This document shows, piece after piece, positions 14,982-55,290 of a stretch of DNA of 64,000 nt. Location of the stretch: sequence record OR062946.1. One strand, written 5' to 3'. The notes beneath the pieces are model-generated. The model saw nothing but the letters and a program-made list of their open reading frames with translations, ran no database searches and had not been told where the DNA came from. Each line of letters starts with the position of its first letter. Position 1 is the stretch's first letter. The stretch comes from Escherichia phage 310Ecol104PP. A program made the translations under genes and the position numbers.

Positions 14982-15455
14982 TTATTTGAATGATTTGACG
15001 TACTGAATAGAACCTTTACTATTCACAAAGGCAATTTTACCATTTTTGTTATACATGGTAGCAGTACGTTGATAACCATAAGTTTGTTTACCAGATTGAT
15101 AACCAACTAATGCAAAATTATCTTCACCCATTTTATTCTGCTTAGCGCGAATGCGTTCATGGCCATGTGCCATAAGAACCTTAGCATCACCCGTTGCAAT
15201 GGATCTACGAGTTTTTTCATCTTCAACTGTATTAACAAAGTCGTCAAATGAATCAAATTTAGCATGAGATTTATTATACAGTTTTCCATCTACTGCATAA
15301 TTATATCCTTGTACATCCATCTCAACTTCTGTACCGTCATCCAATACAGCAGTGATTTTCTGTCCTTTTTTAAATTTCAAAAGATCAGTAAAAGATTCAG
15401 CAATAATTTGAGAATTAATAGCTGCTTCAGTAATAAATTCTTGATATGTTTTCAT
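14982..15455 (-). CDS. internal protein candidate with capsid targeting sequence (157 aa)
   Basis: N-terminus MKTYQEFITEA matches the T4 internal-protein CTS (MKTYQEFIAEA-type); sits at the T4 ipII/ipIII position next to e. Confidence 0.65.
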   Translation of the reverse strand: MKTYQEFITEAAINSQIIAESFTDLLKFKKGQKITAVLDDGTEVEMDVQGYNYAVDGKLYNKSHAKFDSFDDFVNTVEDEKTRRSIATGDAKVLMAHGHERIRAKQNKMGEDNFALVGYQSGKQTYGYQRTATMYNKNGKIAFVNSKGSIQYVKSFK

Positions 15456-15471
15456 GTGTATCCTTTAATTT

Positions 15472-15789
15472 TTATTCTTTAGGGAAGTTTTTAGAATATG
15501 CATCATAAAGCTTATTTCCAATACGGCGGAAAACTCTAGCCGCAAAACGATTTTCTGGGTTTTTAATCATGATTTGCATCATATAAGTACCCGCGTCAGA
15601 AAGAGCTTCTTCATAGTACCCGTTAATTTCTTTAAGAGTCCTACGTTTACCACCAGGACCATCAACAGTGATTTTCCATTTACCTGTAGAAGTGCGACTT
15701 GGCGGCTCAACTTGTTCAATCCAGATATAACCACCTTCTACACGTTGTCCTGCAGCAGATTCTGCAATAAATTCTTTATACGTTTTCAT
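15472..15789 (-). CDS. internal protein candidate with capsid targeting sequence (105 aa)
   Basis: N-terminus MKTYKEFIAES; adjacent to the other CTS gene and to e. Confidence 0.65.
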   Translation of the reverse strand: MKTYKEFIAESAAGQRVEGGYIWIEQVEPPSRTSTGKWKITVDGPGGKRRTLKEINGYYEEALSDAGTYMMQIMIKNPENRFAARVFRRIGNKLYDAYSKNFPKE

Positions 15790-22024: not shown

Positions 22025-22100
<76 letters not shown>

Positions 22101-22104
22101 GTAT

Positions 22105-22179
22105 TTGGCGGACGTGATAGGATTCGAACCTATAACCAATCGCTTAACAGGCGATCGCTCTGCCATTGAGCTACACATC
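22105..22179 (-). tRNA. tRNA-Asn (anticodon GTT)
   Basis: Cloverleaf GGATGTG-TA-GCTCAATGGCAGAGC; anticodon loop CTGTTAA; T-loop TTCGAAT; CCA encoded. Confidence 0.8.
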
Positions 22180-22183
22180 CAAA

Positions 22184-22270
22184 TTGGTGGGGAGTGATGG
22201 AGTCGAACCACCCGAGTCGCAATGACAATGGATTTACAGTCCACACCGCTACCTCTACGGGATAACTCCC
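22184..22270 (-). tRNA. tRNA-Tyr (anticodon GTA), long variable arm
   Basis: Acceptor GGGGAGT/ACTCCCC; anticodon loop CTGTAAA; T-arm GGTGG-TTCGACT-CCATC; D-stem imperfect; CCA encoded. Confidence 0.7.
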
Positions 22271-22279
22271 CAAATTAAT

Positions 22280-22354
22280 TTGGTGGCCCTGGGTGGAATT
22301 GAACCACCATCTGGCGATTATGAGTCGCTTGCTTGAACCTTCCAGCTACAGGGC
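22280..22354 (-). tRNA. tRNA with CAT anticodon (Ile2-type or elongator Met)
   Basis: Acceptor GGCCCTG/CAGGGCC; anticodon loop CTCATAA; at the position of T4 tRNA-Ile. Confidence 0.7.
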
Positions 22355-22355
22355 C

Positions 22356-22431
22356 TTGGTGCTGATTGACGGAATCGAACCGCCGACCTTCTCATTACAA
22401 GTGAGTTGCTCTACCTACTGAGCTAAATCAG
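22356..22431 (-). tRNA. tRNA-Thr (anticodon TGT)
   Basis: Acceptor GCTGATT/AATCAGC; D-arm AGCTCAGTAGGTAGAGC; anticodon loop CTTGTAA; CCA encoded. Confidence 0.8.
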
Positions 22432-22436
22432 CAAAA

Positions 22437-22526
22437 CTGGCGGAGGCGATAGGATTTGAACCTATGAGTCGCCGGAGCGACTGCCGGTTTTCAAGACCGG
22501 TGCATTAAACCACTCTGCCACGCCTC
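22437..22526 (-). tRNA. tRNA-Ser (anticodon TGA), long variable arm
   Basis: Acceptor GGAGGCG/CGCCTCC; anticodon stem CCGGT/ACCGG with loop CTTGAAA; CCA encoded. Confidence 0.8.
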
Positions 22527-22528
22527 CA

Positions 22529-22602
22529 GTCTCCATACAAGGATTTGAACCTTGGACCTCCTGATCCCAAATCAGGCGCTCTACCAAACTGAGCTACACG
22601 GA
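22529..22602 (-). tRNA. tRNA-Pro (anticodon TGG)
   Basis: Acceptor CTCCGTG/TATGGAG; anticodon loop TTTGGGA; T-loop TTCAAAT; CCA not encoded. Confidence 0.75.
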
Positions 22603-22612
22603 GTAAATTAAA

Positions 22613-22687
<75 letters not shown>

Positions 22688-22691
22688 AAAT

Positions 22692-22778
22692 TTGGTGCGA
22701 GAAGTGGGACTCGAACCCACAAGGAAATCATTCCGCAGCATTTTAAGTGCTGTGCCTTTACCAATTTGACCATTCTCG
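22692..22778 (-). tRNA. tRNA-Leu (anticodon TAA), long variable arm
   Basis: Acceptor GCGAGAA; anticodon stem CAGCA/TGCTG with loop CTTAAAA; T-loop TTCGAGT; CCA encoded. Confidence 0.8.
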
Positions 22779-22779
22779 C

Positions 22780-22852
22780 GCTGGGAATAAAGGACTCGAA
22801 CCTTTGCATCCTGGAATCAAAATCCAGTGCCTTACCAACTTGGCTAATTCCC
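22780..22852 (-). tRNA. tRNA-Gln (anticodon TTG)
   Basis: Acceptor TGGGAAT/ATTCCCA; anticodon stem CTGGA/TCCAG with loop TTTTGAT; CCA not encoded. Confidence 0.75.
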
Positions 22853-22950
22853 AATTATTAACAAAGGCTCTCTAACAAGAACCCTTGATGATAGAGGGTA
22901 TTAATCAGTGCGGTATGAGTTAATAATAACAAATAATTCTTAAAGCATAT

Positions 22951-23651: not shown

Positions 23652-23837
23652 TTATTCACCTTTAGAAATTTTATCCATAACGATAGCGATTAAACCAATT
23701 AAAAATGCTACTACAAGTGAAAACACATTTTCTGCTGTAGTTAATAATCCGCATATAAATCCAGCAAACATTGAAAAACTAAAAGCGGAAGCAGAAATTG
23801 CAATAGCAACATTTCGAATTAATTCACAGCGTTTCAT
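23652..23837 (-). CDS. small two-TM membrane protein (about 61 aa)
   Basis: ATG at 23835-23837 (MKRCELIR); hydrophobic segments; the longer track ORF translates the promoter leader. Confidence 0.45.
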   Translation of the reverse strand: MKRCELIRNVAIAISASAFSFSMFAGFICGLLTTAENVFSLVVAFLIGLIAIVMDKISKGE

Positions 23838-23858
23838 TTTATTCTCCTCAGTAGTTGA

Positions 23859-23893
23859 TAGTGTAATAGTATCACAACTAAAACCGCATGTAA
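23859..23893 (-). promoter_or_regulatory. T4-type early promoter (minus strand)
   Basis: gtaaac at 23887-23892 and taatagtatc near 23861; near-identical to the module at 24868-24902. Confidence 0.5.
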
Positions 23894-23898
23894 ACAAT

Positions 23899-24123
23899 TT
23901 ATTCAACACCAGCGGCTTTCAAAAGTTTCTTAAGATTGGCAACACCTTGAGCAGAAAATGTGACCTTTCCACCTTTTTCACTGATAGAACCAACCAATTT
24001 AGCAAGTTTATCATTAGGAATTTTTTTAAAATCAGCCAATGTTCCATCAAAGGTTTTTGAAACAAAAGGCAGTTCATCTTCATGTCTTTTAGCTTCTACA
24101 ATAAATTTTTGATATGTTTTCAT
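23899..24123 (-). CDS. internal protein candidate with CTS (about 74 aa)
   Basis: ATG at 24121-24123 gives MKTYQKFIVEAK; Lys-rich small protein. Confidence 0.6.
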   Translation of the reverse strand: MKTYQKFIVEAKRHEDELPFVSKTFDGTLADFKKIPNDKLAKLVGSISEKGGKVTFSAQGVANLKKLLKAAGVE

Positions 24124-24156
24124 TTTAGTTTCCATTTAGATGTTTTGTTTTGATAG

Positions 24157-24191
24157 GGTAATAATATCACTACCCCATCTAAAAGTAAACA
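24157..24191 (-). promoter_or_regulatory. T4-type early promoter (minus strand)
   Basis: gtaaac at 24185-24190 and taataatatc near 24159. Confidence 0.5.
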
Positions 24192-24200
24192 GTTTATAAA

Positions 24201-24509
24201 CTATTTTATTCCGCGTGATGCAATTGTGTTCTGCCGTTTAACGCCAGTTTGTTTAAAGTCATGATTGTCGATTTGATCGGTACGAGCAACTCCGAATGAT
24301 GATTTGATTTTAGCCTTAGATCCTTTAGTTATAGAAATAAACATCTCGGAAGCCCCTTTCTTAAAGTCCGAGGCGATTACTTCAACGCCGTTCTTAGCAA
24401 GTGACTTCAGAATTGCCTCTGCATACTCATCGTCAAGACTCGTCTGAGTATTAATAACGAATGTCTTTGGCGCAGCCGCTTCATTGATAAATTCTTTAAA
24501 TGTTTTCAT
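24201..24509 (-). CDS. internal protein candidate with CTS (102 aa)
   Basis: N-terminus MKTFKEFINEA. Confidence 0.6.
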   Translation of the reverse strand: MKTFKEFINEAAAPKTFVINTQTSLDDEYAEAILKSLAKNGVEVIASDFKKGASEMFISITKGSKAKIKSSFGVARTDQIDNHDFKQTGVKRQNTIASRGIK

Positions 24510-24535
24510 TTTATTTTCCTAATTAATTTTGATGA

Positions 24536-24570
24536 GATAATAGTACCACAACCCTATTTAAAAGTAAACT
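24536..24570 (-). promoter_or_regulatory. T4-type early promoter (minus strand)
   Basis: gtaaac at 24564-24569 and taatagtacc near 24538. Confidence 0.5.
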
Positions 24571-24842
24571 CATTTTAAATAAATTGCGTATTTTTTATAA
24601 CCCGCTGACTCATGACGAAGACCCTTATCATTAGCAAAACGCTCAATGTTGTTAATTTGATTCTGGTCAAGTTCAGAGATGTCAAACACGAAAAAGTTAC
24701 GTTTGTTACCAACTGTTACATAGTCAGTTAAATCAATATCATATAGGTAATTGATGTCAGCAATCAAAGTCTTGACAGCTTTGCTAATTTTTACTTTTTC
24801 GTTAAAAGCAGCTTCAGCAATAAATTCTTGATACGTTTTCAT
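24570..24842 (-). CDS. internal protein candidate with CTS (90 aa)
   Basis: N-terminus MKTYQEFIAEA (canonical CTS); coordinates from ORF track. Confidence 0.6.
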   Translation of the reverse strand: MKTYQEFIAEAAFNEKVKISKAVKTLIADINYLYDIDLTDYVTVGNKRNFFVFDISELDQNQINNIERFANDKGLRHESAGYKKYAIYLK

Positions 24843-24867
24843 TTTATTCTCCTCAGTAGTTGATAGT

Positions 24868-24902
24868 GTAATAGTATCACTACCTCATCAGCATGTAAAC
24901 AA
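24868..24902 (-). promoter_or_regulatory. T4-type early promoter (minus strand)
   Basis: gtaaac at about 24896-24901 and taatagtatc near 24870. Confidence 0.5.
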
Positions 24903-24912
24903 CTTTGTGAAA

Positions 24913-25609
<697 letters not shown>

Positions 25610-25610
<1 letters not shown>

Positions 25611-26335
25611 TATAGTACCTTTAGTGTATTTTTAATTTTAGAAAAAAGTTCTTCAAGAGAACCATCGTTTGTAATTACTAAATCGCCATCACGAATTGGC
25701 AATCCAGCTTCTGTAATATGAGTATCATTGGATTTTTGACCAGGACGAACTACATGAATTACTGTAGCACCCATCGCCCTAGCCGCATCCATTTCATGAT
25801 CTTGACGAGTATCAGGAACGATATAATAATCATAACCTGAGTTAAATTTATCAAGATAATCTAAAGCAAATAATTTTACCCAGTACATGCGATCGAAGTT
25901 ATTAACAATCAAATCCGTACCTAGGGCTTGCATCAGACGACGGACTGACCATTGATCTTCAATATTATTTATAACGTCAATAATCTTGTTAAATGCTACG
26001 GAATTAACTGATTCTTGTCCTTCGTCATCAAAAACAAACACGCCTTTAATTGGGCTTTTACTATTAAGATAGCAAAATGCTTGTTCCATAATCGTGATTA
26101 CTTCTAATTTAGTCAGATTCAAATTAGTCTCACGATCATAGTCAATTCCTTCAAACTCTTTACGAGTTAAGCAAGAATAGTCAGTGTTTGCTGCGAATAC
26201 GCCCCATGCATAAGCCAATGCATCTTTAATAGGACCAGCAAGTTGATATTTAACTGCAGAATAATTATTCATGATAAAATCTGCGGTAGTATCTTTTCCA
26301 CTACGCTTTACACCACTTAAAAAGATTAGTTTCAT
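25610..26335 (-). CDS. 1: deoxynucleoside monophosphate kinase
   Basis: 241 aa with P-loop SGVKRSGKDT; recognised as T4 gp1. Confidence 0.95.
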
Positions 26336-53387: not shown

Positions 53388-53812
53388 TGCTTCTGATCCC
53401 TGAAACTCATGAATTAGTTCTCGAGAATGTCGAAGCACTTATTCCTGAAGCACAGGGTCGCTTTGACGAATTGTCTTCTGCTTTAAATAAAGACGATATA
53501 AATACAATTGTCGAGAATATGCTTGATGATGAAACTGATTTAGCGGTTGCATTAGCTTCTATTAATGAAAATATGCCGTTAAATGAATTCATCGTTAAAC
53601 ATGTTTCCGCCCGTGGTGAAATTACTCGCACTAAAGACCGCAAAACGCGTGAACGTAATGCATTTCAAACCACTGGGCTGTCTAAAGCAAAACGTAGACA
53701 AATTGCTCGTAAAGCTACCAAAACGAAGATTGCCAATCCAGCAGGTCAATCTCGTGCTCAGCGTAAGCGTAAAAAAGCTCTTAAACGCCGTAAAGCATTA
53801 GGATTAAGCTAA
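53387..53812 (+). CDS. 68: prohead core protein gp68
   Basis: 141 aa in T4 order. Confidence 0.85.
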
Positions 53813-54450
53813 TGAATGAACCCCAATTACTAATTGAAACTTGGGGTCAACCTGGCGAAATTATTGATGGCGTGCCAATGCTTGAATCTCACGATGGAAA
53901 AGACTTAGGTTTAAAACCGGGTTTATACATCGAAGGAATATTCATGCAAGCGGAAGTTGTCAATAGAAATAAACGTCTTTATCCAAAACGCATATTAGAA
54001 AAAGCGGTAAAAGACTATATTAATGAGCAAGTTTTAACTAAACAAGCTCTCGGAGAATTAAATCATCCTCCACGCGCTAATGTTGACCCAATGCAAGCCG
54101 CTATCATTATAGAAGATATGTGGTGGAAAGGAAATGACGTATACGGACGAGCTCGTGTTATTGAAGGTGACCATGGTCCTGGAGATAAATTAGCAGCTAA
54201 TATTCGTGCCGGATGGATTCCAGGAGTTTCTTCTCGTGGATTAGGTTCATTGACTGACACAAATAAAGGTTATCGTATCGTAAACGAAGGATTCAAATTA
54301 ACTGTAGGTGTTGATGCAGTATGGGGTCCAAGTGCTCCAGATGCATGGGTAACTCCTAAGGAAATTACCGAATCACAGACGGCGGAAGCCGATACAAGTG
54401 CCGATGACGCCTATATGGCTCTCGCAGAGGCCATGAAAAAAGCGTTATAA
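53812..54450 (+). CDS. 21: prohead core scaffold protein and protease gp21
   Basis: 212 aa in T4 order. Confidence 0.95.
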   Translation: MNEPQLLIETWGQPGEIIDGVPMLESHDGKDLGLKPGLYIEGIFMQAEVVNRNKRLYPKRILEKAVKDYINEQVLTKQALGELNHPPRANVDPMQAAIIIEDMWWKGNDVYGRARVIEGDHGPGDKLAANIRAGWIPGVSSRGLGSLTDTNKGYRIVNEGFKLTVGVDAVWGPSAPDAWVTPKEITESQTAEADTSADDAYMALAEAMKKAL

Positions 54451-54480: not shown

Positions 54481-55290
54481 ATGCTTAAAGAACAACTGAT
54501 TGCCGAAGCGCAGAAAATTGATGCTTCCGTTGCTCTTGATAGTATTTTCGAATCAGTTAATATTTCTCCGGAAGCAAAAGAAACTTTCGGCACTGTATTC
54601 GAAGCTACCGTCAAGCAGCACGCCGTTAAATTAGCTGAATCTCATATCGCTAAAATTGCTGAAAAAGCAGAAGAAGAAGTAGAAAAAAATAAAGAAGAAG
54701 CCGAAGAAAAAGCTGAGAAGAAAATCGCTGAGCAAGCTTCTAAATTCATTGACCATCTTGCGAAAGAATGGCTCGCTGAAAATAAATTAGCAGTTGATAA
54801 AGGCATCAAAGCCGAACTGTTTGAATCCATGCTTGGTGGATTAAAAGAGCTCTTTGTTGAACACAACGTTGTTGTTCCAGAAGAATCAGTTGATGTTGTG
54901 GCTGAAATGGAAGAAGAGCTGCAAGAACATAAAGAAGAATCAGCTCGTCTGTTCGAAGAACTCAATATGCGCGACGCATATATCAATTATGTGCAGCGTG
55001 AAGTGGCATTGAGCGAAAGTACTAAAGATCTGACTGAGTCTCAAAAAGAAAAAGTCTCTGCTCTGGTCGAAGGTATGGATTATTCAGATGAATTCTCAAA
55101 TAAATTGAGTGCCATCGTAGAAATGGTGAAGAAGTCTAATAAAGATGAAAGCACTATTACTGAGGGTATAAATACTCCTGATACTGAAGCAGCCGGACTG
55201 AATTTCGTCACTGAAGCTGTAGAAGATAAAGCTGCACCTGGTGCAGAAGATATTGTAAGTGTATATGCGAAAGTCGCATCTCGTTTCTAA
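54481..55290 (+). CDS. 22: prohead core scaffold protein gp22
   Basis: 269 aa acidic coiled-coil in T4 order. Confidence 0.95.
   Translation: MLKEQLIAEAQKIDASVALDSIFESVNISPEAKETFGTVFEATVKQHAVKLAESHIAKIAEKAEEEVEKNKEEAEEKAEKKIAEQASKFIDHLAKEWLAENKLAVDKGIKAELFESMLGGLKELFVEHNVVVPEESVDVVAEMEEELQEHKEESARLFEELNMRDAYINYVQREVALSESTKDLTESQKEKVSALVEGMDYSDEFSNKLSAIVEMVKKSNKDESTITEGINTPDTEAAGLNFVTEAVEDKAAPGAEDIVSVYAKVASRF
55167..55174 (+). promoter_or_regulatory. T4 late promoter (TATAAATA) for gene 23, inside the 3' end of gene 22
   Basis: Exact TATAAATA about 135 nt upstream of the gene 23 ATG. Confidence 0.55.

Follow-up and report, generated by a model that had tools for sequence, protein, structure and literature searches.

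A further copy of the ip9-ip7-ip8 array at the ipI locus of a T4-like coliphage: known internal-protein genes, presumed to encode injected counter-defence factors, behind shuffled early-promoter modules

Injected internal proteins of phages are an active topic, and the three internal proteins of T4 have recently been shown each to inhibit a type IV restriction enzyme of its own: Ip1 acts on the GmrSD of strain CT596, Ip2 on the GmrSD/BrxU of ECOR21 and Ip3 on the two-gene GmrSD of ECOR17, and none of them protects against the target of another (PMC12373910). For the other known Ip variants, which by one count number more than 30, no target is known. Variability of the ipI locus was described in 1994 (Repoila 1994, as cited in later work). 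The same concept of proteins packed into the head and injected with the DNA applies to Dar of phage P1 and other capsid-delivered anti-restriction proteins (PMC12810830), whose proteins and packaging signals are unrelated to those discussed below, so that the likeness is one of analogy only. Here we analyze a stretch of 64,000 nucleotides (nt) from Escherichia phage 310Ecol104PP (OR062946.1), referred to as the window, and particularly an array of three small genes between positions 23,899 and 24,902, each of which starts with a capsid-targeting sequence (CTS).

The window is part of the genome of a Tequatrovirus, that is, a T4-like coliphage. Judged by their sequences, the three genes are ip9, ip7 and ip8 of the ipI hyperplastic locus, internal-protein genes of T-even phages that had been named before. 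In tblastn searches of a phage collection, the ip9 product is 97.8% identical to the RB32 protein annotated Ip9, the ip7 product 99% identical to the RB15 and T2 proteins annotated ip7, and the ip8 product 100% identical to Ip8 of RB15. All three fall into PHROGs families labelled as internal head or virion proteins (ip7 in phrog_2667, 5.2e-41), and identity within each Ip family remains at 78-100% between genera. The 1.8 kb surrounding the array matches 669 phage records, the best of which, Escherichia phage vB_EcoM_G4498, shows 97.8% identity over 99% of the query; its copies of ip9, ip7 and ip8 are likewise annotated as internal proteins in RefSeq. The three consecutive open reading frames (ORFs), with lengths in amino acids (aa) and isoelectric points (pI) of the predicted mature forms, are as follows.

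24570..24842, minus strand: ip9, 90 aa, start MKTYQEFIAEA, CTS MKTYQEFIAE at 24813-24842, predicted mature form of 80 aa, pI 8.2
24201..24509, minus strand: ip7, 102 aa, start MKTFKEFINEA, CTS MKTFKEFINE, predicted mature form of 92 aa, pI 9.65
23899..24123, minus strand: ip8, 74 aa, start MKTYQKFIVEA, CTS MKTYQKFIVE, predicted mature form of 64 aa, pI 9.6

In the mechanically made ORF list ip8 begins four codons earlier, at an ATG at 24135 (METKMKT...); its homologues and the public annotation begin at MKT.

The window holds a further copy of the ip9-ip7-ip8 array annotated in RefSeq genomes and adds no new member or arrangement. Earlier publications already cover the arrangement, the repetition of the promoter modules and the hypothesis of an anti-defence role (Repoila 1994, as cited in later work; Silas 2025). 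An earlier note on this DNA, made from the letters alone, had proposed CTS-bearing internal-protein genes at the ipI locus as plausible injected counter-defence factors, and it was right in kind. It had also said that one-to-one identity with characterized internal proteins would tell against its proposal; at the level of identity this is what was found, at 97.8-100%, with the named Ip9, Ip7 and Ip8.

Our preferred reading, to which we give a probability of roughly 0.88, is that this ipI locus carries the known ip9, ip7 and ip8 genes for proteins that are targeted to the head, cleaved and injected, each blocking one host defence. Gene identities, motifs, promoters, synteny, the presence of gp21 and gp22 and the mosaic modules were established directly here; packaging, cleavage, injection and the anti-defence role are carried over from T4. 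Each unit consists of a T4-type early promoter, a short Shine-Dalgarno leader, ten CTS codons and a small basic mature domain unrelated to those of the other units. If the T4 model holds, the CTS would bind the protein to the gp22 scaffolding core during prohead building, the gp21 protease would cut after Glu10 of an I-x-E motif, and the mature proteins of 64-92 aa would remain in the head with the DNA and then enter the cell with it. By analogy with Ip1, Ip2 and Ip3 of T4, they would arrive before any phage gene expression and each would block one specific host defence. The promoter-leader-CTS repeats, in turn, may serve as short homology patches through which recombination inserts, deletes and swaps whole ip units between related phages.

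Our results support the first part of this model at the level of the targeting peptide. The CTS pattern MK[TS][YFW][QKE][EKQD][FL][IVL] has five matches in the six-frame translation of the window, 5/5 of them at ORF starts, and none in 200 shuffles; three lie at the ipI locus and two at the ipII/ipIII position (15472-15789 and 14982-15455). All five proteins carry a gp21-type (I/L)-x-E motif at residues 8-10, which in Ip9, Ip7 and Ip8 reads IAE, INE and IVE, respectively, each followed by Ala. The T4-type CTS that the earlier note had read at the start of the three ORFs is thus borne out. In this regard, experimental mapping of IPIII has assigned targeting to residues 4 and 7 (Y/F and F) and processing to residues 8 and 10 (I and E) (PMC9026906), and Ip9, Ip7 and Ip8 all carry determinants of this type, with aromatics at 4 and 7, I at 8 and E at 10. 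The processing machinery is encoded in the same window, together with gp20, gp23 and gp24:

53812..54450, plus strand: gene 21, prohead protease (Pfam Peptidase_S77, 1.5e-111), the enzyme expected to remove the CTS
54481-55290, adjoining gene 21: gp22 scaffold gene (T4_CASP, 1e-89)

Beyond the CTS, the three proteins part ways. In BLASTP comparisons, their mature parts (residue 13 to the end) matched neither one another nor T4 IPI, IPII and IPIII at E values below 0.1, in agreement with the mutual unrelatedness noted earlier. Compared with Ip1-3 of T4, Ip7, Ip8 and Ip9 share the ipI locus (with IPI), the N-terminal targeting and cleavage peptide, a small basic mature protein, early transcription and presumed co-injection; they differ in mature parts that have no sequence similarity. 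T4 IPI also appears to have a longer propeptide, judged from its known 76-residue mature form. By every feature that can be checked in silico, ip9, ip7 and ip8 belong to the T-even internal-protein family.

The position of the array points in the same direction. Genes on the minus strand follow the order gene 1, 57A, 57B, the three small ORFs, trna.4, trna.3, trna.2 and ten tRNA genes. In T4 the order is 57A-57B-ipI-trna.4-trna.3-trna.2-tRNAs, with a single ipI in place of the three ORFs, and the array therefore occupies the ipI position, as the earlier note had proposed. This site, between 57B/Acb1 and trna.4, is one of the two IP loci (57B-trna.4 and the e-denV side). Synteny of the trna.4 flank was seen with T4, T2, RB32 and RB15. 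The neighbouring genes are listed below.

25610-26335, minus strand: gene 1, deoxynucleoside monophosphate kinase, part of the upstream gene order
25368-25610, minus strand: 57A, part of the upstream gene order
24913..25368, minus strand: 57B homologue of the Acb1 family, which counters cyclic oligonucleotide-based antiphage signalling systems (anti-CBASS) (Pfam Acb1, 2.6e-60); conserved, syntenic upstream flank
23652..23837, minus strand: trna.4 homologue, predicted membrane protein of 61 aa without a CTS (phrog_1692, 5.4e-35); conserved flank

Because the 57B homologue belongs to the Acb1 anti-CBASS family, the ip array adjoins a known counter-defence gene. Many records label this homologue "RNA ligase" despite its match to Acb1 in Pfam.

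Transcription signals are equally regular. The window contains 11 matches to the T4-type early promoter GTTTAC-N17-19-TAYTAT where 0.15 would be expected. All 11 are on the minus strand, and 4/11 lie within this 1 kb, before ip9, ip7, ip8 and trna.4 (spacing N18), each with a -35 element that begins 0 to 13 nt from the preceding stop codon. The four promoter-leader modules are:

24843..24900, minus strand: ip9 module, -35 GTTTAC at 24895-24900, -10 TACTAT at 24871-24876, Shine-Dalgarno GAGGAG at 24849-24854, then ATG
24510..24569, minus strand: ip7 module, -35 GTTTAC at 24564-24569, abutting the ip9 stop codon, -10 TACTAT at 24540-24545, Shine-Dalgarno AGGAA
24124..24190, minus strand: ip8 module, -35 GTTTAC at 24185-24190, -10 TATTAT at 24161-24166, inside a stable hairpin at about 24152-24179
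23838..23895, minus strand: fourth copy of the module, driving the trna.4 homologue and marking where the variable locus ends downstream; 90% identical to the ip9 module over 69 nt

The claim that each gene has its own early promoter is confirmed by the GTTTAC...TAYTAT elements before ip9, ip7 and ip8. The modules had also been called near-identical; a repeated module does stand before each gene, but identity among the ip promoter-leaders is 70-72%, and 90% is reached only by the ip9 and trna.4 pair. Identity is 76-88% in the 33 nt of CTS codons and falls to the background of about 50% in the remaining coding sequence.

The repeated DNA thus runs from the promoter into the CTS codons, and this feature could be taken to mean that the N-terminal likeness is merely part of a recombining module (the first 33 nt) in front of ordinary early cytoplasmic proteins that are never packaged. 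The nucleotide-level identity of the CTS codons would fit such an explanation. We consider it very improbable, however, on three grounds: (i) trna.4 has the 90%-identical, ip9-type promoter-leader without a CTS, so the module does not force a targeting peptide onto the gene behind it, (ii) the CTS residues needed for targeting and cleavage are kept in the three proteins while the remaining CTS positions vary and (iii) in T4 the first 10 residues are enough to package foreign proteins (PMC9026906). The presence of such a module before a gene without a CTS marks it, rather, as a general regulatory and recombination unit at the border of the locus.

The promoter early stem-loop (PeSL) cassettes of RB49 and phi1, together with their T-even IP-locus analogues (Arbiol et al. 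2010; Comeau et al. 2014), offer the closest comparison for these modules. Like the modules of the window, they occur in repeated copies, each made up of a promoter, a Shine-Dalgarno sequence and an optional stem-loop; they lie on either side of small non-essential genes, and the insertions and deletions that distinguish close relatives have their borders at them. At the IP loci, the PeSL-like elements are built on T4 early promoters, and their stem-loops are weak, AT-rich and variable in size; it has been proposed that they restrict the shuffling of Ip genes to these loci (PMC2839356; PMC4122927). In contrast to PeSL cassettes, the promoters of the window are of the T4 early type (GTTTAC...TAYTAT), the repeat continues into the coding region across the CTS, and clearly stable hairpins are formed only by the ip8 module and by the module of an Ip10-like gene at the second IP locus.

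Our own folding test agrees with the literature on stem-loop variability. The ip8 module folds at -18.7 kcal/mol (z = -4.3), and 0/200 shuffles folded as well; the second-locus module before the Ip10-like gene has a moderate hairpin (z = -2.5). The ip9 (z = -0.13), ip7 (z = +1.6) and trna.4 modules folded no better than shuffles. A conserved hairpin around the -10 element of every module was considered and rejected, the apparently covarying arms elsewhere being no better than shuffles.

Arrays at the same site differ widely in content among relatives: ipI in T4; ip5-ip7 in T2; ip5-ip9-ip7 in RB32, whose record carries the note "flanked by 43 bp direct repeat"; ip5-ip9-ip7-ip8 in RB15; ip7 alone in G8; ip9-ip7-ip8 in G4498; and, in KIT06, a 95-aa ip gene followed by ip9, ip7 and a shortened ip8. 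The window shares with the named arrays of RB15 and G4498 the proteins (97.8-100%), the ip9-ip7-ip8 order, the 57B and trna.4 flanks and the promoter modules. RB15 differs in having an ip5 unit upstream of ip9 that is missing in the window. In the module alignment, the ip9 module of the window is the same as the RB15 ip5 promoter as far as the invariant core GTGATACTATTA and the same as the RB15 ip9 leader beyond it; it is a hybrid of the two, with the crossover located in the conserved -10 core, GTGATACTATTA. G4498, the closest complete genome, has the same three genes and a different leader before ip9, of the RB15 trna.4 type (G4498 locus L001 3742-3830 compared with window 24843-24915). Modules are thus exchanged even between nearly identical phages, since G4498 is 97.8% identical overall, and both the ip5 deletion border relative to RB15 and the leader swap fall inside the module. 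These mosaic modules fit the published module-mediated shuffling at IP loci, and the value of the array is as a clean example of it.

The basic character of the mature parts (pI 8.2-9.65) brings in a further explanation, in which Ip9, Ip7 and Ip8 would be generic head-filling proteins that neutralize DNA charge or aid packaging or ejection, with no specific host target. In line with this, the internal proteins of T4 touch DNA phosphates through their lysines, and it has been proposed that they play a part in the rate of packaging (PMC3012670). The AlphaFold2 model of Ip7 is weak, with a mean predicted local distance difference test score (pLDDT) of 68.8 and a generic ferredoxin-like core, and it does not resolve the basic C-terminal tail, which would also suit a protein of this kind. 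The Ip9 model, on the other hand, is confident (pLDDT 89.9), with an N-terminal helix over the CTS followed by an alpha-beta-beta-alpha-beta-beta core, that is, a predicted compact folded domain, and, as described below, other phages have the Ip9 domain in an early protein that is not packaged. Head filling leaves unexplained why the mature domains are unrelated, why near-identical phages differ in Ip content and why each family keeps 78-100% identity across genera; hence we regard it as unlikely.

Returning to our preferred reading of specific, injected counter-defence proteins, the searches for a function gave little to build on. Pfam, PADLOC and PDB sequence searches of Ip9, Ip7 and Ip8 returned nothing significant, and a likeness in sequence or fold to IPI*, Ip2 and Ip3 was not found. 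Sequence and structure have yielded no functional lead for them.

A narrower version of the same reading holds that Ip9, Ip7 and Ip8 specifically inhibit further GmrSD-type (type IV) enzymes that cut DNA with glucosylated hydroxymethylcytosine (glucosyl-hmC). That T4 IPI is an anti-restriction factor, as the earlier note stated, agrees with the inhibition of the CT596 GmrSD by Ip1 (PMC12373910). All three Ips of T4 inhibit GmrSD variants, one inhibitor per variant; ip9, ip7 and ip8 occupy ipI's own locus; and the proteins of both IP loci have been predicted all to target GmrSD variants (Silas et al. 2025, PMC12373910). In the same study, however, ip4-10 were screened against a panel of GmrSD variants with no reproducible inhibition of the tested groups, and apparent effects of ip7 on CLS_011 and of ip8 on CLS_018-019 were not reproducible either (PMC12373910, Supplementary Fig. 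9). The plating on strains with type IV restriction that the earlier note had recommended is thereby partly covered, with this outcome. Ip7, Ip8 and Ip9 are therefore not demonstrated members of the functional class of GmrSD inhibitors, and we see the narrower version as possible, with the odds somewhat against it.

Several of our observations also weigh against the broader reading. The screen of ip4-10 leaves the most obvious class of targets so far unsupported, and in the literature searched we found no experiment on Ip7, Ip8 or Ip9, either on their presence in virions or on a target. In addition, the late-promoter consensus TATAAATA does not occur inside the array. The nearest minus-strand TATAAATA, at 25966-25973 inside gene 1 and upstream of 57A-57B and the array, is the only candidate site from which late transcripts could reach it. 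Given the lack of TATAAATA in the array, the supply of Ip proteins at head assembly probably comes from continued early transcription or from read-through.

Further evidence on the target of Ip9, at least, comes from relatives of its mature domain outside packaged proteins. Single-sequence, word-indexed protein searches returned only near-identical relatives, and a profile seeded with tblastn matches was needed to reach those lacking the CTS. The tblastn matches start at about residue 17 of Ip9 and lead to CTS-less proteins of 72-74 aa in Bas70 (a Kagunavirus-like phage of 43 kb) and KS_A3 (Seuratvirus). The same domain forms the C-terminal domain of gp077, a 660-aa protein of Salmonella phage SKML-39 (Agtrevirus). 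In three Kagunavirus-like contigs of 41-44 kb, a CTS-less Ip9 gene encoding 72 aa opens a rightward operon after an intergenic gap of about 480 bp. Among the matches listed for Ip7 and Ip8, unlike those of Ip9, all begin at residue 1 and all lie in T4-like phages. The CTS-less Ip9-domain relatives map to these positions of the retrieved loci:

L004, 2507-2725: CTS-less Ip9-domain relative
L005, 2492-2716: CTS-less Ip9-domain relative
L006, 752-2734: CTS-less Ip9-domain relative, gp077 of SKML-39
L012-L014, 4001-4219: CTS-less Ip9-domain relatives

A profile search of 1.84 billion representative proteins gave only 39 clusters at E <= 0.001, some with CTS-like N-termini of other T4-like lineages (MKSFKEYLTES, MKSFKEFVTES, MKTFQEFLNEA) and others without. 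An L-x-E-like motif closes the N-terminus of gp077 (MATPSFLNFLEE...), which might be analogous to the propeptide removed by a prohead protease; gp077 would then be a large internal protein whose C-terminal domain resembles Ip9. The small CTS-less relatives are annotated as "internal head protein", a label that in siphoviruses is probably an annotation-transfer error.

The small siphoviruses and the Seuratvirus with a CTS-less Ip9 domain are not expected to carry glucosyl-hmC DNA, which argues against a target of Ip9, at least, that is tied to this modification, and so against the narrower GmrSD version. The occurrence of the domain in packaged and non-packaged contexts suggests, as a lead rather than a result, that it moves from one to the other and that its target may be one that does not require glucosyl-hmC. 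The mature domain of Ip9 could then be a portable, early-acting module delivered differently by each phage lineage, instead of a glucosyl-hmC-specific anti-restriction factor. Under this proposal, it would be CTS-fused and injected in several T4-like lineages, made as an operon-first protein of 72 aa in Kagunavirus-like siphoviruses and carried as the C-terminus of gp077 in Agtrevirus. We advance the idea tentatively, as less likely than not. Were it true, Ip9 would act on a defence or host function to which the T-even DNA modification is irrelevant, and the CTS-less homologues would offer an easy genetic system for finding it. Non-packaged relatives of the Ip9 domain may in any event help future target hunting, and the remaining interest of the array lies in the targets of Ip7, Ip8 and Ip9 and in the CTS-less Ip9 relatives.

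Downstream of the array, the tRNA cluster at 22025-22853 (minus strand) holds ten genes (Arg, Asn, Tyr, Met, Thr, Ser, Pro, Gly, Leu and Gln) with no segB homing-endonuclease gene inside; T4, by contrast, has eight tRNAs, including Ile, with segB among them.

The remaining two CTS genes of the window form the second IP locus (14982..15789), at the ipII/ipIII position:

15472-15789, minus strand: Ip10-like CTS gene, 105 aa, 70% identical to "Ip10" of Shigella phage SP18
14982-15455, minus strand: second CTS gene, 157 aa, in a PHROG labelled "internal virion protein"

Outside the CTS, neither protein resembles T4 IPII or IPIII. The 105-aa protein is called hypothetical in most of the records listed, and its PHROG is labelled "unknown function". 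In the promoter of its gene, the -10 element lies within a perfect 8-bp inverted repeat (AACTGTGA...TCACAGTT).
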